This document shows positions 1,995 through 9,859 of a stretch of 64,000 nt of DNA, in pieces. How positions within the stretch are numbered: the first letter of the stretch is position 1; each line of letters begins with the position of its first letter. The stretch spans positions 192 to 64,191 of the forward strand of contig CALIZB010000045.1 in the NCBI GenBank assembly GCA_938028625.1, read 5' to 3'. Source of the stretch: an uncultured Bacteroidia bacterium. GTDB lineage: Bacteria > Bacteroidota > Bacteroidia > JANWVE01. Both the position numbers and the translations under genes were made by a program. The notes below the pieces were generated by a model, which ran no database searches, was not told where the DNA came from, and saw nothing but the letters and a program-made list of their open reading frames with translations.

Positions 1995-2690
1995 TTGTGT
2001 ATGTTTATTGTTATTATCGCTTTGTTGCCCGTAGTGTTAATTAACACTTTTGTTTATGTAAAAGATAAAAAAGATAAAGAACCTATAAAAAACCTTGCTA
2101 TTTCTTTTATTTTAGGAGGGTTAAGTATCTTTTTTGTGGGCATACAACTCATTCTCCATGAGGCAAAAATCATAGGTACATGGGATAATTCTAAAAATGT
2201 AACAGATATTTTTTTACATGCGTTTATAGAAGTAGCCTTAGTAGAGGAGTTAGGTAAATACGTCATGTTGCGCGGGTATGCGTATAGAAGAGAAGCGTTT
2301 AATGAACCTTTTGATGGTATTGTGTATTCGGTTATGGTATCTATGGGATTTGCGGGCTTTGAAAACATTATGTATTCTTTACAAGGGTTAAGTACGGCTA
2401 TTTTAAGGGCTTTTACGGCTGTTCCTGCGCATGCTACTTTTGCCGTAGCTATGGGCTATTATGTGGGGTTAGCCAAATTTAACCCTGAAAAAAGCAGATT
2501 ATATCAATTTATAGGAGTGAGTTTAGCGGTTATTTTTCATGGTTTTTATGATTTCTTTTTGATGTCGCAAGAGCAAATAGGTATGTTTCTGGGAGCATTT
2601 GTTACACTCATTGTGGGCATAGTATTGAGCTTAAAAGCCATAAAACGCCATAAAGCCTTAAAAGAACAACATTTTGCTCAAAACACATAA
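1995..2690 (+). CDS. PrsW-family intramembrane protease-like membrane protein.
   Basis: 231 aa, multi-TM. Carries EELGKY (EExxK), FAGFEN and HATFAVAMG/FHGFYD motifs resembling PrsW/CPBP-type glutamic proteases. Confidence 0.5.
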   Translation: MCMFIVIIALLPVVLINTFVYVKDKKDKEPIKNLAISFILGGLSIFFVGIQLILHEAKIIGTWDNSKNVTDIFLHAFIEVALVEELGKYVMLRGYAYRREAFNEPFDGIVYSVMVSMGFAGFENIMYSLQGLSTAILRAFTAVPAHATFAVAMGYYVGLAKFNPEKSRLYQFIGVSLAVIFHGFYDFFLMSQEQIGMFLGAFVTLIVGIVLSLKAIKRHKALKEQHFAQNT

Positions 2691-2698
2691 AAAATTCA

Positions 2699-5399
2699 TC
2701 AATAGCCCATAAAATAACTTATCTCTATTTGTACATATCGGGACATAAGCCGTTGATTTTGTATGGTATAGTTAAAATCTGTGAAGTTTATTTGTCTGAA
2801 TTGCTGATTGTTGAGTAGGTTATTAACTTTTACTCCCAAAGAAAAATGGTTTTTTTGATATTCGGCAAAAACATTGAGAAAATACGGCATATTGAGCTTT
2901 TGTCCGCGTATCATAAGATATTCAGAGGATATACCTGCACGAAATTTTAAGCTCAATGTATAAGATAAATCTAAAAATACATGTGTAGTCTGATTATATT
3001 GACGGTTAGTATTACTAGTTGCTATGTTATTAGCTACGGAATAAGTATGATTTTGTTGTACTTGAGCATGATAATTGAATACCTTAAATCCTGAACGCAG
3101 ACTTACAGAATAAAAGTGCGAATAGGTTATATTTTGCCTTTCCACGTTATTAACATAGTTAAAATATCGGAACTGATGAAGAGAATAAGTGCCGCGTAAA
3201 GCCGAAGTAATTTGTTTAAAGTACTGTGACACATTCGTGTTTATCATAAGCATTGTATTAGATTTATCTTTACTTACAAAAGCCATTTGATTTTGATTAG
3301 CTACAGTACTTATAAGATTTTCATACAATATGGGACGCTGCATAAGGTTGTACATAAGAATAGTATTCCATTTGAATTTACTTTGATTAGTGTTAAAAAA
3401 GTTGATAAAAGTAAAACTGTGTGAAGGTGAGATGTTAAACTGTCCTAATCCGAATGTGCCACCCTGAAAGTTTTGCAAAATATATCCGTCAAATACACTT
3501 TGAAAAGGACTTATATCCAATTTTCGTTCATAGTTAAGTGAAGTCATAAAAGGGCGCTTGTTGTATTGAACACTTATTTTTGGCAAAAAATAAGGCATTT
3601 GTAAAGTTTTTTGGTTATAGGTAAAATTCAAATATCCAGCTTCCGTAGTAAGATTAAGGCTATAATTTTCATGATTATATTTATGTTCTATGTATGCATA
3701 GTAACGTTGTGTAGTAGGTACACCAAGCCGATTAAGTGTATCAAAAAAAGTGCTGTAATCTGTAAAAAAAGCGGTTTTTATACGTTGTTTTTCATGTTCT
3801 GCACCGATAGTAGCGGTAAAATAGTATTTTTTGTGGTTAGTATTGTAAATAGCATTGAGTTTTGCATTTTGATGGGGCTGTTCAATGGTTTGTTGTATAT
3901 GTGCGTATCCTGTATCTTGTAATATAGGAACAAACTGATTACGATATAAATTATAGTGTTGTGTAAAATCAAATTCAGTTTGATAAAGTGTAATTAAGCG
4001 AATAGCTTGCTTTTTAGTAATTTGGTAGGTATATTCTGTATTTTCAAATAAAGTTTTTCTGAATGTGCGCAGGTGCTGTGTATAAGGTCTGCCATTAAAA
4101 AGTATCTCTTCATGATGGAATTTTTCAGTATAACTCAATCCATTTATCCATCTAAAAAGATGACGAGATTTAAGTTTGGAGAGGTAAGTACTCACATCTG
4201 TATTTAGAGGTTTGTAAGTAAGGCTGTGGCGTTGTGTATTTTGAATGGTATCAGAATTGGGCAAAATAAAACCTTGTGTATATTCCTGAAACATTTGATT
4301 TTTACCTGTGATTAAAGATGCAGTGCTTTTGAACTCCCATTTTTTGGGCAGTTTGAAAAGATAGGCTTGTTCTAGGTTGTAGCTTTGGTTAAAATTAGAG
4401 ATAGGTGTATTAAAATTGGATATAGTGGAGTAGTTTGGAAAATTGAGTATAGCTGTAGTTGGCGACATATCATAACTACTATTGGGATTAAGTAGGCTTA
4501 AATAATTTCCTGAAAAGAAGAAATCTGCGGTTTTTTCTAAATTCAGGTTATCGGTATCGCCTATGTTATTTGTTTTGGCAGAGAGAATAGTTTTGAATTT
4601 TTTACGAAGGAGCATTTCTTCTATTTTTACCTTGTAACGTGGTGCGTAATGTGCATCTATACCTGCGGATATGCTATATTCTCCTGTCCACACATTACGG
4701 GCTTTGGCATTGAGTTTTAAGTTAAGAACTTTTTCATCGGTGCTTTGAATTTTTGTAAGCAAAGGATTATCAGAGTATTTGTCTATTACTTGAATGGTAT
4801 CTACGGATTGTGCAGGGAGCGTTTTAGTAATTTTTTGATAATTATTTCCTTTAAGGTCATCACCGTCAATGAGTACGCGCGAGATTATTTTGCCATTATG
4901 TTTTATTTTACCTTTTTCATCAATTTCCACTCCCGGAATTTTTTTGAGAACATCTTCTATTTTTTTATCACCAGGTTGAATAAGGTCTTTTACTTTGTAG
5001 TCTAAGGTGTCTTTTATGGCAGGAGGCTTATTTTCTATGATAACTGTTTCTTTTAATTTGACTGTTGTAGGCACTAAAATAATATCAAAAAATTGAGTAG
5101 TTTTAGTAGTATCTATAATAAAAGAACGTGTTTTATAGCCAAGTAGTGCGATATCCAGGGTTAAATTAGGTTTTTTAGGTACTTCTATTTCAAAATTACC
5201 TTTGCTGTTTGTTTCACTAAATTGTAAGATATAACCTTCGGGGACTTGTTTTATTGTAACAATAGCTCCTGATATACTTTTTTGGTTAGTGCTGTCTTTT
5301 ACAGTTCCTTGAAGAAGAATATTTTGTGCATGAAGCGAGTAGCTAAAAAAAAAATTGTGTTACACAGAGCAGAAAATAAAAAAACAGGTTATTTTTCAT
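2699..5399 (-). pseudogene. TonB-dependent-receptor-like outer-membrane beta-barrel protein with N-terminal CarboxypepD_reg domain. The signal-peptide start (ATG 5397-5399) is out of frame with the body because of an A10/T10 homopolymer.
   Basis: Track ORF 2699..5074 starts at GTG. The same frame stays open upstream to a TAA at 5360-5362 and encodes ...FFFSYSLHAQNILLQGTVKDS (signal-peptidase site plus CarboxypepD_reg). Plug-like motif NLKLNAKARNVW follows. C-terminal aromatic residue (…FMGY). A perfect signal peptide MKNNLFFYFLLCVTQFFF sits in the -1 frame and terminates right after the T10 run. Confidence 0.6.
5345..5354. repeat. Homopolymer A10 (T10 on the coding strand) at the signal-peptide/mature-protein junction of the OMP gene. 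Candidate slipped-strand phase-variation switch.
   Basis: Ten consecutive A at 5345-5354. 9 or 12 T would fuse signal peptide and body in frame. Confidence 0.5.
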
Positions 5400-5576
5400 A
5401 GCTGATTAATTTTGATGAGTTCAAATGTATAGTATGTTAATTTATTTAATTTTAATACGTTGAAAATGACAAAACCAAAAAAAGATTATTATGTTTTATT
5501 ATACAATCGGGGCATTATGTATCTCTTTTTGCGCAAAAATATAATAGATGTATTAAGTTTGCAATACCTAAATTTT

Positions 5577-6353
5577 TCATTCAAATTCTATTTCCCATTC
5601 AGGGACAATGCTTTTATATTGAAAATGATATTTTACACGTTCTTCTTCGGGCGAGCGTTCTTCTTCGGCATTCATTTGTGCAGTAATTTCCTTAATTTTT
5701 TTATCTATGCGGGTTTTATAGTGTTCTTTATATTCTTGCCATGAAGTTTTTACATCATTTTTATGATAGGGGATAGAGGAATAGTTTTGTAAAATTTTTT
5801 GTATATTATCTTGTTTTACAGGTATTTCTATTTCATTACATTGTAGTACGATAACACTGTCCTGTGTATAAGCAGTAAGGATTAAACCAGGTAGTCCATG
5901 TAATTTCCATGGTCCAAATTTGATGGGGATTTGTGGCGTAAACCATGCTTGCCAAGTACGTCCCCTAAATGTTGTTATGGCTTTTTGACAGGTATAATTT
6001 TGTATTTTTTTCGTTTCAGGACAAATTTGCCATTTTATTTTTGGAATACCATGAGGTTCATACGTGTACACTCTATACGCAGGAATAACTGTGCGGATAC
6101 ACATCTGGTTTTTTGCAGAATACGTGTAAATTACATTTCCTATATTTTCTCTTTTATCTCTTTCTGCATCATAAACAAAAATAGCGGTTTGTTCGTTGTA
6201 GTACAGGAATGTAGGAATATTTTTTATTTCCTGTTGTTGTGCAGAGAGAGTGTCATTTTTGAATGAAAGACTGTAATAAATTATTCCATTGTTTATCTGA
6301 GACTTGCAATGAAAAGATACTATTACCAATAAGCTGATATGCCATATTTTCAT
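5577..6353 (-). CDS. GLPGLI-family protein (Bacteroidota-specific paralogous family of unknown function) with signal peptide.
   Basis: 258 aa. Literal GLPGLIL motif within ...FRGRTWQAWFTPQIPIKFGPWKLHGLPGLILTAY. N-terminal signal MKIWHISLLVIVSFHC. Paralog of 6791..7798. Confidence 0.7.
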   Translation of the reverse strand: MKIWHISLLVIVSFHCKSQINNGIIYYSLSFKNDTLSAQQQEIKNIPTFLYYNEQTAIFVYDAERDKRENIGNVIYTYSAKNQMCIRTVIPAYRVYTYEPHGIPKIKWQICPETKKIQNYTCQKAITTFRGRTWQAWFTPQIPIKFGPWKLHGLPGLILTAYTQDSVIVLQCNEIEIPVKQDNIQKILQNYSSIPYHKNDVKTSWQEYKEHYKTRIDKKIKEITAQMNAEEERSPEEERVKYHFQYKSIVPEWEIEFE

Positions 6354-6428
6354 AATACCATTAAATAAACGATATTTAAATTTAAGTCTGATTTGTTGTT
6401 TAATAAAACCAGGCTTTTACAAAAAAGT

Positions 6429-6671
6429 TTACTTTGTTAGAATATCACATAATTTTCCTGCATTTGCACCTGCTTTTTTACATGCTTTTTCATAATTACT
6501 TCCTTCACCGTAACCAGTTATAGTACCGCCTGCACATTGTATAGTAACGGTACAAGATACTATTTGTACATCTTTTTTGGGTTCTACCTTTTCAGGTTTA
6601 TTCTCTGCCCAACTCATTACGGGGAGCAACATTAACGCCGCTACAACCCAAATTTTTCTTACCTTTTTCAT
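6429..6671 (-). CDS. Small secreted cysteine-rich peptide A (80 aa; Sec signal + ~54-aa mature peptide with 4 Cys and a GYGEG motif).
   Basis: N-terminus MKKVRKIWVVAALMLLPVMSWA|ENKPE. Mature part has C-x6-C … GYGEG … AC … C. Sits directly upstream of a GLPGLI gene. Paralog at 7824..8099. Confidence 0.6.
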   Translation of the reverse strand: MKKVRKIWVVAALMLLPVMSWAENKPEKVEPKKDVQIVSCTVTIQCAGGTITGYGEGSNYEKACKKAGANAGKLCDILTK

Positions 6672-6786
6672 AGCTTATTTATGAGATTAAATGCACCGCA
6701 GAAATCTAAAAAAAAAAATACAAGTCAAGTTTTATATAAAAAATATTTCTATTTTTCTTGTATCTCTTTGAAAAAGAGTTTTTTAT
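6589..6786. repeat. Copy A of a ~200 bp direct repeat (~96% identical to 8017..8218). Covers the first ~27 codons (signal peptide), 5'UTR and promoter of the small-peptide gene.
   Basis: Base-by-base comparison with 8017..8218 shows ~6 substitutions plus a 2-nt homopolymer length difference. Homology ends abruptly after ENKPE codons. Confidence 0.8.
6708..6718. promoter_or_regulatory. Poly(A)11 / poly(T)11 tract in the putative promoter spacer of peptide gene A (~37 nt upstream of its ATG).
   Basis: In minus-strand orientation: …AACTTGACTTGTA-T11-AGATTTCTGCGG…ATG. Flanked by TTG (-33-like) and TAgaTTTC (Bacteroidota -7 TAnnTTTG-like) elements. Copy B has T13. Confidence 0.4.
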
Positions 6787-6790
6787 AGAT

Positions 6791-7798
6791 TTAGTATTCA
6801 AATTCTAATTCTATCTGAGGTTCTTCACATACAGCTCCCATTTTTATCATTCTAAAACTATTACCTCTACTTTGATATTCTGCATTTAATTGTTTTGTGT
6901 ACTCATCAATTTTCTTTTGAGTTAAAGTTCTATAATAGTCTTTGTAATCCTCCCAAGTTGCATTCAACTTACCGTCCCGATAAGGTTTTATTTCTAGTCC
7001 AATATCTTCCAGAATAAGTTTATTGGTAGCAGGAATTTCTATCTCTTCAAACAAGAAATTAATTTTTTTATCTTTATCATATACTTCTAAAATTAAGCCG
7101 GGTAAGCCATAGAACTTCCAAGGACCCATTTTAATAGGAATATCAGGACAAAACCATGCTTCCCAATGCCTTCCCCTGAAATAACAGGTAGCTTTGTAAC
7201 AAGTAAAAGAACCTAATCTTCGGGTTTCTGTGGTAATACTCCAATTAAATTTAGGAAATTTATCGCCATTCTCTTCTATGATAGCTAATCCTAATAAAAA
7301 AACACCATCTCTGTGCACCATTTCTTTGGTTAGTATGTTTTTATATATTACTTCGCCGGTGTTATCAAATTTTGTTTTTGTATTAGGTATTTTTTTACTG
7401 CCATACATGTACACAGAAGCATAATCATTAAAAAGCAAAAAAGACGGATTAACCGTAGAACTTTTTCGATCGAGCATAATAATACTATAAACACTATCAG
7501 GTATGTTTTGATTAACTTCAAATATTTGTTTGTAAGTAACTAAACCTGTTGTGTTTTGTGTATAAACTAAATAATTGAAGCAAGATAACAAGATAATTAT
7601 AGTGCTTAGTTTCATGGCGAGATAATTACATAATATATTGATGAATAAATTTGAAAATGCTGGTATTTTAATTGTATGAATAGCTATTTTAAACTTACTT
7701 AGCATACCATTTTTATGCTTAAGGGTATCTATCACACTTTGAAATACCAGTTCAAGGTTATTAGAAAATTTGTTATTTAATACACATTTATGACTCAA
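6791..7798 (-). CDS. GLPGLI-family protein, second paralog. The track ORF starts at TTG 7798. Probable true start is the signal-peptide Met at ~7614 (MKLSTIIILLSCFNYLVYTQN).
   Basis: …FRGRHWEAWFCPDIPIKMGPWKFYGLPGLILEVY… aligns with the 5577..6353 product. The internal Met begins a clear signal peptide. Confidence 0.65.
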   Translation of the reverse strand: MSHKCVLNNKFSNNLELVFQSVIDTLKHKNGMLSKFKIAIHTIKIPAFSNLFINILCNYLAMKLSTIIILLSCFNYLVYTQNTTGLVTYKQIFEVNQNIPDSVYSIIMLDRKSSTVNPSFLLFNDYASVYMYGSKKIPNTKTKFDNTGEVIYKNILTKEMVHRDGVFLLGLAIIEENGDKFPKFNWSITTETRRLGSFTCYKATCYFRGRHWEAWFCPDIPIKMGPWKFYGLPGLILEVYDKDKKINFLFEEIEIPATNKLILEDIGLEIKPYRDGKLNATWEDYKDYYRTLTQKKIDEYTKQLNAEYQSRGNSFRMIKMGAVCEEPQIELEFEY

Positions 7799-7823
7799 TC
7801 ATCAAATAGTATTTGAGAAATGA

Positions 7824-8099
7824 TTATAGTAGGGCAAATACCGTACACATAGCTAATGCTGACACATATGCTTCTGCACAAGCACTTGCCTGGTCCACAC
7901 CCTCACCATACCCATATACCCAACCGTCTGTCCACTCGCTACATTTAGTAGCTAATACACAAGGGATCTGTTGTACTTGTTTTGTGTTTTCTATTTTTAC
8001 TTCATTTCTTGGAGTATTTTCAGGCTTATTCTCTGCCCAACTCATTACGGGGAGCAACACTAACGCCGCTACAACCCAAATTTTTCTTACCTTTTTCAT
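7824..8099 (-). CDS. Small secreted cysteine-rich peptide B (91 aa), paralog of peptide A. Near-identical signal peptide, divergent mature region.
   Basis: N-terminus MKKVRKIWVVAALVLLPVMSWAENKPE. Mature part again has C-x5/6-C … GYGEG … AC … C. Located upstream of the second GLPGLI gene. Confidence 0.6.
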   Translation of the reverse strand: MKKVRKIWVVAALVLLPVMSWAENKPENTPRNEVKIENTKQVQQIPCVLATKCSEWTDGWVYGYGEGVDQASACAEAYVSALAMCTVFALL

Positions 8100-8218
8100 A
8101 GCTTGTTTATGAGATTAAATGCACCGCAAAAATCTAAAAAAAAAAAAATACAAGTCAAGTTTTATATAAAAAATATTTCTATTTTTCTTGTATGTGTTTG
8201 AAAAAGAGTTATTTTTAT
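8017..8218. repeat. Copy B of the ~200 bp promoter + leader direct repeat (see 6589..6786).
   Basis: Direct comparison. Contains an A13 tract (8136-8148) instead of A11. Confidence 0.8.
8136..8148. promoter_or_regulatory. Poly(A)13 / poly(T)13 tract in the promoter spacer of peptide gene B.
   Basis: Same context as 6708-6718 but two nucleotides longer. Confidence 0.4.
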
Positions 8219-8389
8219 ATATTGGTGTTAGAATTACAACCAAAATACTTTTTTTGTATTGTTAAATAAGCAAACCTATATTGAGTCTAACTAATAATAA
8301 TTCAAGTTATGCATTGAGAAGTTAAATGTAAAGTGGATATAAGAAAAATTTGTTTGTTTAGAGATAATTCTTGTAAATTGCATGCGGAT

Positions 8390-9859
8390 ATGGAGAATCT
8401 TACATTAGACCTTTTACAAAGTCTACCCTTAATTTTACTGTTAGTGATGGCACTTTTTTTAATGATTGCCGAAGCTATTGACCGTAAGAGCGTAGTAGTA
8501 CCTTATATTGGCATAGTGGCTTTATTAGTTTCTGCGGTATTAGAATTTCCTTTTGATGATAAAAATGGAGATATGTATCGTAGTGTGGCAATATACAATG
8601 GTATGCTGAAAGTGAGAGGAATAGCTTCTTTGTTTCATGTAATTTTATGTTTAACAGGTGCATTTGCTTTATCTTTTGTTGTACCTTATTTGCGAAAACT
8701 TAAAGAATTTAAAGATGACATAACAGGTGAAATAACTGTACTAACCATTTTTGCAGTAATAGGCATGATACTATTAGCTAATGCAAATGATTTGATTATA
8801 ACTTTCATTGGATTAGAAACCATGTCTGTTTGTTTGTATATTATGGCAGGTTCATTAAAGACGCGTAAAGAGAGCAATGAAGCAGGAATTAAATACTTTT
8901 TACTTGGGGCATTTGCATCAGCATTTTTGTTGTATGGCATAGCGCTTATTTATGGAGCATCAGGCAGTACAAATTACAACAAAATGAACATGGCATTGTT
9001 ACAGAACTCTCCTTTGTTTTTTGCAGGTACAGGTCTGATACTGGTAGGTTTTCTCTTTAAGATATCCGCTTTTCCGTTTCATTTCTGGGCACCTGATGTA
9101 TATCAAGGGGCGCCCACACCTATGGTGGGCTTTATGGCAACGGCATCAAAAAGTGCATCTTTCTGGGGACTGATGCTGTTTATTGTAGCGATGAGTACCG
9201 TACCTAAACTGAATACACTTTTGCAAATTATTGCCGTACTTACTATGATTTGGGGTAATTTTATGGCTATCCGTCAGACAAATTTAAAGCGAGTATTAGC
9301 ATATTCTAGCGTAGCTCATGCAGGATATGTATTGCTTGCTATGGCTTCACACTCTAATATGGGCTTTCAGGCGGTAGTGTTTTACATGATAGCTTATACC
9401 CTTATGAACCTTGCTACTTTTGGAGTTATTTCTTTGATAGAAGGAGAAAAATTTAGTACTAATGCAAAAGAATTACAAGGATTGTATTATCAAAAACCTG
9501 CATACGCCATAATTCTCTCCATGTGTATGCTGGCATTATCTGGTATTCCGCCATTTATAGGATTTATAGGCAAATATCAAGTATTTGCAGCAGCTATAAA
9601 AGCAGATATGGTTGTTCCTGCCATTATTGGTATCATAACTTCTGTGGTATCCGCTTTTTATTATTTGAGTGTTATTCGTAGGATTTGTTTTATCAAACCT
9701 GACGAAAAATATCTACATACACCTTTTGTCGCAGACGGATTAAGCTATACTGCTTTGGGCATACTTGTTTTTGCCATAGTGGTTTTGGGCTGTTATCCAA
9801 GTCCTGTTTTGAATCTTGTTAATAAATTGTATTTGTACTCTGTTGCTTTTATTGGTTAA
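8390..9859 (+). CDS. NuoN-like proton-translocating membrane subunit (complex I subunit N / NADH dehydrogenase subunit 2 family, PF00361). Orphan: no other nuo genes nearby in this window.
   Basis: ~14 TM segments. Diagnostic stretch KISAFPFHFWAPDVYQGAPTPMVGFMATASKSASF plus LYGIALIYGASGSTNY, typical of NuoN/ND2. Probable start is MENLTLDLLQ (8390), not the upstream ATG at 8333. Confidence 0.65.
   Translation: MENLTLDLLQSLPLILLLVMALFLMIAEAIDRKSVVVPYIGIVALLVSAVLEFPFDDKNGDMYRSVAIYNGMLKVRGIASLFHVILCLTGAFALSFVVPYLRKLKEFKDDITGEITVLTIFAVIGMILLANANDLIITFIGLETMSVCLYIMAGSLKTRKESNEAGIKYFLLGAFASAFLLYGIALIYGASGSTNYNKMNMALLQNSPLFFAGTGLILVGFLFKISAFPFHFWAPDVYQGAPTPMVGFMATASKSASFWGLMLFIVAMSTVPKLNTLLQIIAVLTMIWGNFMAIRQTNLKRVLAYSSVAHAGYVLLAMASHSNMGFQAVVFYMIAYTLMNLATFGVISLIEGEKFSTNAKELQGLYYQKPAYAIILSMCMLALSGIPPFIGFIGKYQVFAAAIKADMVVPAIIGIITSVVSAFYYLSVIRRICFIKPDEKYLHTPFVADGLSYTALGILVFAIVVLGCYPSPVLNLVNKLYLYSVAFIG

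Follow-up and report, generated by a model that had tools for sequence, protein, structure and literature searches.

What do a small secreted peptide and a protein of the GLPGLI family do together, when their genes stand side by side and the pair recurs with a conserved 5' part and a diverged remainder? The locus that raises this question lies in a stretch of 64,000 nucleotides from an uncultured Bacteroidia bacterium (contig CALIZB010000045.1, from a low-GC genome, 34.7%); we refer to this whole stretch as the window. Placement by PRPP synthetase rests on a closest named match to a 'MAG: Bacteroidia bacterium' (74%), with Cytophagales next at about 55%. An earlier note on the same DNA had described two minus-strand units of one architecture (promoter, peptide, GLPGLI protein), and the open reading frames (ORFs) and their order are as it described. 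The two units are not the full extent of the locus, however, since a third component, the gene of an outer-membrane protein (OMP), lies outside the coordinates of that note. The locus is an accessory three-component module: a cassette, a four-Cys miniprotein and a GLPGLI protein, all present twice, and then one SusC/Oar-like OMP. In other genomes, GLPGLI genes pair with at least three unrelated kinds of peptide: four-Cys miniproteins with a Sec signal peptide, precursors of radical-SAM (rSAM) ribosomally synthesized and post-translationally modified peptides (RiPPs), and Chryseobacterium-type peptides with a double-glycine (GG) leader. Our tentative best guess is that the peptides are polymorphic secreted effectors, that each GLPGLI protein is the cognate periplasmic binder of its peptide, and that the OMP is the exit route. 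The components, in the order of transcription, are as follows.

2690..8340, minus strand: the whole accessory island, two peptide-GLPGLI units and the OMP gene; 5.65 kb
8100..8220, minus strand: non-coding part of cassette copy 2, putative promoter and pep2 5' untranslated region (5'UTR); the whole repeat is 8017-8220
7824-8099, minus strand: pep2, precursor of 91 aa; Sec signal peptide (predicted cleavage after SWA), ENKPEN... linker, four-Cys mature domain
6791-7615, minus strand: GLPGLI2, 274 aa from MKLST; signal peptide ends YTQ; LolA-like open beta-barrel, then C-terminal helices
6672..6790, minus strand: non-coding part of cassette copy 1, with a T11 tract at 6708-6718; the whole repeat is 6589-6790
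6429-6671, minus strand: pep1, precursor of 80 aa; pep2-type leader, diverged four-Cys mature domain
5577-6353, minus strand: GLPGLI1, 258 aa; signal peptide ends KSQ
2699-5399, minus strand: OMP gene, about 900 aa; signal peptide, CarboxypepD_reg domain, plug-like region, long C-terminal part; frameshifted

The longest ORF of GLPGLI2 is 6791-7798, and its start at 7615 is backed by homologs. No Rfam family matched anywhere in the window, and a terminator scan of 2500-8500 found none.

The small ORFs are real genes, and they encode Cys-rich miniproteins that carry a Sec signal peptide for export. A protein identical to pep2 (P0001) has been called in public assemblies, and the small ORFs are gene-called in independent assemblies. 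In a second genome (locus L001, Logan SRR27215045), the precursor P0003 shares both the leader and the four Cys, and its mature part is 43% identical to that of pep2; after it come an ortholog of GLPGLI2 and a large protein that shares 78% identity with the window's OMP. In a third genome (L083), a partial peptide, ...CTAYVYCSITGTYISGYGYGGTPEEACDGAIKDARNKCSIWI, is followed by a GLPGLI2-type gene and then by a GLPGLI1-type gene. Between these two GLPGLI genes (L083 1-1857) lie 38 bp and no peptide gene. The lack of this second peptide means that unit composition varies among close relatives. The earlier note had made its proposal depend in part on the small ORFs being conserved, and the window ORFs are indeed kept, with four Cys, in the two other genomes. 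Across the three genomes, the four Cys and the G-x-G-x-G/AC motifs are conserved despite mature identities of 34-43%. The same note had held that the mature peptides of the two units diverge completely. This is too strong, as mature pep1 and pep2 are 34% identical and related, but it was correct that a four-Cys/GYGEG scaffold is kept, the common pattern being C-x5-C...GYGEG...AC...C. AlphaFold2 (AF2) gives the mature domain a compact fold of a beta-hairpin and a helix (in pep1, hairpin 38-57 and helix 60-79, with a predicted local distance difference test score, pLDDT, of 86-90), a domain that would be stapled by two disulfides.

Rates of change differ greatly along the module. Nonsynonymous divergence (dN) from orthologs is 0.10 for the signal peptide, 0.13 for the OMP, 0.14 for GLPGLI1, 0.33 for GLPGLI2 and 0.53 for the mature peptide, which puts the pace of the mature peptide at about four times that of the OMP and about five times that of its leader. 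The proportion of nonsynonymous differences is below that of synonymous ones (pN < pS) in every comparison made. Diversifying selection, in the sense of dN above synonymous divergence (dS), could not be demonstrated, dS being saturated (>1) in all orthologue comparisons.

Few relatives of these peptides can be found. A word-indexed search among 5.8 billion proteins recovered the family as three clusters, and a full HMMER search over 1.84 billion representatives gave no further credible members. The window peptides match no Pfam or NCBIfam family, including the bacteriocin leader models and TIGR04149. Three apparent resemblances were rejected. A sub-threshold match to Pfam dsrm (E 0.0015) is to a generic motif, and a reading as RNA-binding protein does not suit a peptide that is Sec-exported. 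The HMMER relatives P0126 and P0127 were rejected as homologs, as their E-values (2e-5 and 4e-4) arise from the summing of 7-8 repeats. These two are surface proteins with leucine-rich repeats and of the type secreted by the type IX system (1751 aa and 1231 aa), and their Listeria-Bacteroides-type repeats, YTVTAQCDSTQGTVTGSGTY, resemble the peptide hairpin. Finally, homology between the window peptides and the Bacteroidales-type four-Cys peptides described below was not established: the hidden Markov model score is about 7 bits and covers the C-TVTI-C-x-G hairpin only, and we therefore call the two analogous.

Is the pairing of such a peptide with GLPGLI a peculiarity of this genome? A GLPGLI alignment was scanned against one genome per GTDB species, which yielded 79 loci with 119 GLPGLI genes. 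We counted as a paired peptide any ORF of 40-135 aa that lies on the same strand, no further than 250 bp upstream, and encodes a Sec-type signal peptide together with four or more Cys; as controls we took the remaining ORFs of these 79 loci that reach 200 aa, 283 in number. Such a peptide ORF precedes 24 of the 119 GLPGLI genes and none of the 283 controls (Fisher p = 3e-14), so the association that the earlier note proposed to look for in other Bacteroidota is found there. The Sec-type pairs occur in Bacteroidales, in Flavobacteriales (Aquimarina, Tenacibaculum) and in Sphingobacterium. They often stand in tandem arrays, which reach six peptide-GLPGLI units and in which a conserved signal peptide precedes mature parts that differ (L066, L065, L058, L027); in L066, the leader MKK(K/R)ILALAFVAAMT(M/L)GLAKTAGSNDW is followed by unrelated C...C...C...C domains. 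The window is built in this way as well.

Other GLPGLI genes directly follow GG-leader Cys-rich precursors of known families. Two upstream precursors match the rSAM RiPP family TIGR04149 (E 4e-11 and 1e-9), and another matches NF047798, 'leader_Chryseo' (E 5e-6). In L010, the order is precursor, GLPGLI and a TIGR04148 radical-SAM maturase (E 5e-151), and a TIGR04149 precursor and TIGR04148 maturase are both present in the GLPGLI loci L010, L012 and L013. In L019, a TlpA-like thioredoxin follows. Of the 119 GLPGLI genes, 82 are without a peptide.

Two further observations concern individual loci. In L016 and L047 (Chryseobacterium), a multi-pass membrane protein of about 502 aa is encoded some 70-235 bp downstream of GLPGLI, after a GG-leader peptide and the GLPGLI gene. 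It has CxxC motifs and, as we read its sequence, a thioredoxin-like C-terminus, with no NCBIfam match at E <= 1e-5, and may be an enzyme dedicated to disulfide formation. In L020 (4222-4560), upstream of a GLPGLI-GLPGLI-OMP array, an ORF fuses the N-terminus of a BlaI-like repressor to a four-Cys peptide's C-terminal half (…GSKASGYVCSDEDLAEFIRAFCKIEINIEIIS), and has the look of a peptide gene truncated by a deletion.

The GLPGLI partners are unambiguous members of their family. Both pass TIGR01200 (142.8 and 115.8 bits, the cutoff being 50; E 2.4e-33 for GLPGLI1) and PF09697, Porph_ging (48.5 and 42.5 bits against a cutoff of 25), and GLPGLI1 also passes PF22252, PNGase_F-II_N (45.1 bits against 27.6). 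As the earlier note had it, they are homologous but diverged, at 36% identity (E 8e-47). GLPGLI1 is 76% identical to its ortholog in L083, and GLPGLI2 is 59-62% identical to its ortholog in L001. The eponymous motif reads YGLPGLIL in GLPGLI2 and HGLPGLIL in GLPGLI1. It belongs to a conserved block, FRGR.WEAWF...IP..GPWKF.GLPGLI, with 10 columns invariant across 85 family sequences, among them L171, P172, G173, L174 and I175. In Bacteroidetes, a Q after the signal peptide marks exported proteins processed by signal peptidase I (the 'Q-rule'). A Q directly after a type-I signal peptide is found in 72 of the 85 family members, and a lipobox in few, so that each GLPGLI protein is itself predicted to be exported.

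Structure comparison places the GLPGLI fold with LolA, LolB and RseB, as an unclosed antiparallel beta-barrel, at a sequence identity of only 6-14%. Elsewhere in the periplasm, the LolA/RseB-like fold holds hydrophobic or peptide ligands. HMMER, Pfam and structural matches all connect GLPGLI to the N-terminal domain of PNGase F-II, whose function is unknown and which is dispensable for catalysis (PMC9522356). This domain is the only solved relative of the family. In the full texts that were searched, the GLPGLI family (TIGR01200/PF09697) and TIGR04148/TIGR04149 occur only in gene lists and in the PNGase papers, which agrees with the statement in the earlier note that GLPGLI proteins have no known function and with its belief that the pairing is undescribed.

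How do the two units come to have nearly the same 5' part? Each carries one copy of a direct repeat of about 205 bp that comprises promoter, 5'UTR and the codons of the signal peptide. In copy 1, the repeat begins directly past the GLPGLI2 stop codon, and it ends exactly at the last ENKPE codon. The earlier estimate of near-identity over about 200 bp is matched by alignment of the copies, which are 97% identical over 6589-6718 versus 8017-8146 and 94% over 6708-6790 versus 8138-8220. The leader common to both precursors, MKKVRKIWVVAAL(M/V)LLPVMSWAENKPE, is likewise as first given, and a 39-nt leader probe has two matches in the window, both in the cassettes, where chance would give 0. Copy 2 contains TTGACT, a T13 tract (8136-8148) and TAGATT, with a sigma-70-like match at 8158-8131. 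A sigma-70 promoter scan scored no better than shuffles, its model not being fitted to Bacteroidota promoters. The non-coding region of cassette 2 is conserved in L001. A 42-aa ORF (8115-8243, minus strand) overlaps the promoter cassette, and L088, a relative described below, has an equivalent; this ORF is almost certainly spurious, sitting as it does on conserved non-coding promoter sequence.

Between pep1 and pep2, dS rises from 0.066 in the leader (27 codons) to about 1.06 in the mature part. Purifying selection on the signal peptide cannot account for this 16-fold contrast. A second assembly, L002, represents a 99.72%-identical strain with 50 differences from the window over 18.1 kb. Together the two cassettes cover about 2% of the sequence, and they hold 12 of these differences. 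A four-way alignment of the window and L002 copies identifies the cassette substitutions as paralogous variants reshuffled between copies: L002 unit 2 has unit-1 states at three sites, and L002 unit 1 has unit-2 states at two sites, including the M14V codon. The cassettes are thus homogenized by ongoing gene conversion, and near-identical leaders have been kept while the mature peptide and its partner diverged. That the cassette recombines, which the earlier note had proposed, is borne out by the dS contrast together with this mosaic exchange between strains. The other cassette differences in L002 are in the length of the poly-T run between TTGACT and TAGATT, which is T13 in unit 2 and T11 in unit 1 of the window and T9 in both L002 copies. 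Such variation in spacer length could tune or switch promoter activity.

The OMP gene follows unit 1. Its body is a 791-aa ORF (2699-5074), which the CarboxypepD_reg domain extends in the same frame as far as 5353. In the region encoding the signal peptide, a T10 run (5345-5354) leaves the start codon (5399) and signal peptide MKNNLFFYFLLCVTQFFF out of frame; T9 at this run would give an 899-aa product. The same frameshifted state is found in L002, and could reflect phase variation, early decay or a homopolymer assembly error. The N-terminal domain matches PF13715, CarboxypepD_reg (E 1e-10, 41.9 bits against 32.2), and a profile of ten homologs matches SusC homologs over positions 7-158 (SusC residues 16-159), that is, over the N-terminal extension and the start of the plug. 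The remainder of about 780 aa has no Pfam (Plug and TonB_dep_Rec included), NCBIfam or PDB sequence match. By eye, we recognized a plug-like motif (IEDVLKKIPGVEID..G.I...G), a TonB-box-like start and a C-terminal aromatic residue.

The OMP is not peculiar to this locus. Its homologs directly follow 18 of the 56 GLPGLI arrays that have enough flanking sequence, and they are distributed unevenly: after 11 of 12 arrays with Sec-type peptides versus 7 of 44 others (p = 2e-6), and after none of the GG-type arrays. One OMP can serve several peptide-GLPGLI pairs.

The whole block from 2690 to 8340 is an accessory island, an insertion/deletion polymorphism between two flanking genes.

1995-2690, plus strand: PrsW protease gene, one flank of the island
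8333-9859, plus strand: nuoN, the other flank

In L084 and L086, whose PRPP synthetases are 87% and 83% identical to that of the window, PrsW and nuoN are separated by about 20-60 bp and the island is cleanly absent; blastn places the breakpoints of homology at window positions 2689 and 8341. A third relative, L088, has a relic of about 1 kb at the same PrsW-nuoN site, in which the cassette, with the first codons of the leader, runs into the 3' end of pep1 (97% identity to window 6337-6505), and this in turn into the 3' end of the OMP gene. In L001, the module stands in an unrelated genomic context. Neither an integrase nor flanking repeats were seen at the island borders. A contig from the same sample as L001 (L089 3-737; PRPP synthetase 90% identical) has a DsbD/CcdA-like thiol-disulfide gene upstream of nuoN. 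This gene replaces the module and PrsW, and represents another variant of the same site.

What, then, might the pairing be for? We tentatively prefer the interpretation that a polymorphic secreted effector is combined with a cognate periplasmic GLPGLI binder that provides immunity, with the OMP as exit route, although we regard it as somewhat short of probable. A periplasmic binder is suggested because GLPGLI accompanies three unrelated classes of peptide, whatever their export route, and does so in the usual position of an immunity gene, directly after the precursor. The OMP is read as the exit because it accompanies only those peptides that Sec leaves in the periplasm. Under this interpretation, the peptides would be bacteriocin-like, each GLPGLI protein would sequester its own peptide in the periplasm and so protect the producer, and the OMP would carry the Sec-exported peptides across the outer membrane, for which the secretion of PopC by way of Oar (PMC6434023) is a precedent. 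The leader cassette would act as a recombination handle by which cassettes of peptide and partner are duplicated, swapped and lost, and the 82 GLPGLI genes without a peptide would be orphan immunity genes. The toxicity of the peptides and its neutralization by GLPGLI are proposed by analogy with effector-immunity arrays. The window has the design of such arrays, with a conserved 5' part, a variable secreted part, a variable partner for each and recombination between copies. An absent or decayed state in relatives is likewise usual for competition loci.

It is important to consider several points that weigh against this interpretation. TonB-dependent transporters normally import, and the OMP gene is frameshifted in both strains examined. 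The invariant block of the GLPGLI family points to a common conserved partner or ligand, which is odd for an immunity family. Most of the mature peptides are acidic (pI 4.1-4.9; pep1 8.4), and for this reason they are not of the classical cationic membrane-active type. No dedicated disulfide oxidoreductase is encoded in the island 2690-8340, Bacteroides has been reported to lack general disulfide machinery (PMC6671954), and the four Cys might not be disulfide-bonded in every host. The bacteroidetocins, which are the closest characterized Cys-peptide toxins of Bacteroidota, have no immunity protein (PMC6671954). Lastly, in PNGase F-II, a GLPGLI-type domain is fused N-terminally to a secreted enzyme, and a role in carrying or docking explains this fusion more easily.

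This last point leads to the alternative that survives best, in which GLPGLI is an export adaptor. The periplasmic carrier would take up its cargo peptide through variable surfaces and dock on the OMP through the motif block, and the OMP would move the cargo out; the role of the peptide (toxin, adhesin or signal) is then left open. Points in its favor are the LolA-like carrier fold, the invariant motif block beside a variable remainder, the tight coupling of Sec-type peptides to the OMP (in 11 of 12 arrays) and the service of several pairs by one OMP. A domain that is fused to a secreted enzyme yet dispensable for catalysis (PMC9522356) would fit a transport or docking module. An outward precedent exists in Oar, a TonB-dependent transporter that is required for secretion of PopC in Myxococcus (PMC6434023). 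However, GLPGLI also follows GG-leader precursors in loci without the OMP. GG leaders normally go with a peptidase/ABC (ATP-binding cassette) exporter, as in bacteroidetocins, although none was searched for in those loci. A separate and highly diverged paralog for every cargo would be uneconomical compared with a shared export signal, and most GLPGLI genes adjoin neither a peptide nor this OMP. We consider an export adaptor possible, but rather unlikely. More doubtful still is the wider proposal that GLPGLI proteins and the PNGase F-II N-terminal domain are together LolA-fold cargo adaptors of an unrecognized Bacteroidota export route, in which Sec-exported miniproteins, or enzymes fused to the adaptor domain, would be passed to a dedicated SusC/Oar-like barrel of the TonB-dependent type that works outward.

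Alternatively, the direction of transport could be inward, with a released peptide ligand (a pheromone, or a scavenger of metals or nutrients) being re-imported by the OMP and received by its cognate GLPGLI protein. The SusC-type N-terminal extension of the OMP and, as far as sequence reading goes, its TonB-box-like and plug-like start belong to transporters that normally import. GLPGLI genes also lie upstream of other TonB-dependent receptors in Chryseobacterium (796 aa and 1052 aa), and four conserved Cys could bind metal. Methanobactin operons, where a peptide goes together with a TonB-dependent transporter and with a binding protein of the periplasm, would be comparable. However, hypervariable ligands in tandem arrays, each with a private binder, are unexpected for nutrient scavenging; a Sec-only peptide has no evident exit apart from the same OMP; and neither the window nor L001 nor the GTDB loci inspected have a regulator or sensor linked to the module. 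Uptake or signaling of this kind thus appears improbable. That the small ORFs are spurious products of a duplicated AT-rich intergenic region, their adjacency to GLPGLI meaningless, is largely refuted and in our judgment scarcely credible: they are short, lack any Pfam or NCBIfam match, form only three clusters in the protein search and share their cassette with one ORF that is spurious, but they have a canonical signal peptide, motifs kept in three genomes, pN below pS throughout, a confident AF2 fold, gene calls in independent assemblies and analogous ORFs upstream of GLPGLI genes elsewhere (24/119 vs 0/283).

We compared the module with described systems. Bacteroidetocins (class IIf; PMC6671954, PMC8546649) are also small secreted four-Cys peptides of Bacteroidota, encoded in small accessory loci and variable among strains. 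They have a 15-aa double-glycine leader, an ABC exporter with a C39 peptidase, a thiol oxidoreductase and a protein with five transmembrane segments, and no immunity protein. The window peptides, in contrast, begin with a Sec signal peptide, show no sequence similarity to bacteroidetocins and are accompanied by GLPGLI and OMP partners; all of the genes just listed are missing, and no ABC transporter is encoded within the island 2690-8340. Bacteriocin-immunity and polymorphic-toxin arrays, such as class II operons and the orphan modules of contact-dependent inhibition (CDI) and Rhs systems (PMC3482391), resemble the module in several ways: a variable secreted part is attached to a conserved 5' or N-terminal one, each variant has a variable partner of its own, the units stand in tandem and recombine through the conserved part, and their distribution is accessory and patchy, with decayed copies. 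The window differs in that toxicity and immunity are here putative, and in its partner protein, which is large, exported, of LolA fold and marked by an invariant motif block. Where polymorphic toxins conserve a trafficking domain, the window conserves promoter, 5'UTR and signal peptide.

The TIGR04149/TIGR04148 rSAM RiPP clusters and the NF047798 peptides share with the window a GLPGLI gene directly after the precursor (L010, L012, L013, L047), whereas the window peptides match neither model and use Sec, and the island is without a maturase. The N-terminal bowl-like (NBL) domain of PNGase F-II (PDB 4R4X/4R4Z, 7ZGN) is fused to a glycosidase, whereas the window's GLPGLI proteins stand alone, have C-terminal helices and are paired with a peptide gene. 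With LolA, LolB, RseB and MucB, the likeness seen is one of fold, and nothing points to lipoprotein or anti-sigma ligands; identity is low, as given above, and the GLPGLI motif is not a LolA feature. Oar (PMC6434023) and SusC-like transporters share with the window's OMP an N-terminal CarboxypepD_reg-type domain and, as we read the sequence, a plug-like region, and Oar offers a precedent for outward transport; unlike theirs, the long remainder of the OMP matches no family or PDB sequence, and no SusD partner accompanies it. As a set, the Sec miniprotein, the LolA-fold GLPGLI protein and the SusC-like OMP match no described system, and there is a real chance that they represent a new export route.

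The consequences reach beyond this genome. GLPGLI (TIGR01200/PF09697) is a large paralogous family found throughout Bacteroidota, with many paralogs per genome, and it gains here a first functional context together with a testable role, that of a cognate peptide binder acting either in immunity or as an export adaptor. Should the wider adaptor route prove true, it would amount to a new secretion pathway and would give the GLPGLI family its function; if the OMP exports the peptides, a TonB-dependent-type barrel would have a new outward use. The locus also offers a clean small-scale case of concerted evolution of a promoter and leader beside fast-diverging cargo. If the peptides are antagonistic, they would represent a widespread and unannotated peptide weaponry in gut, oral and environmental Bacteroidota.

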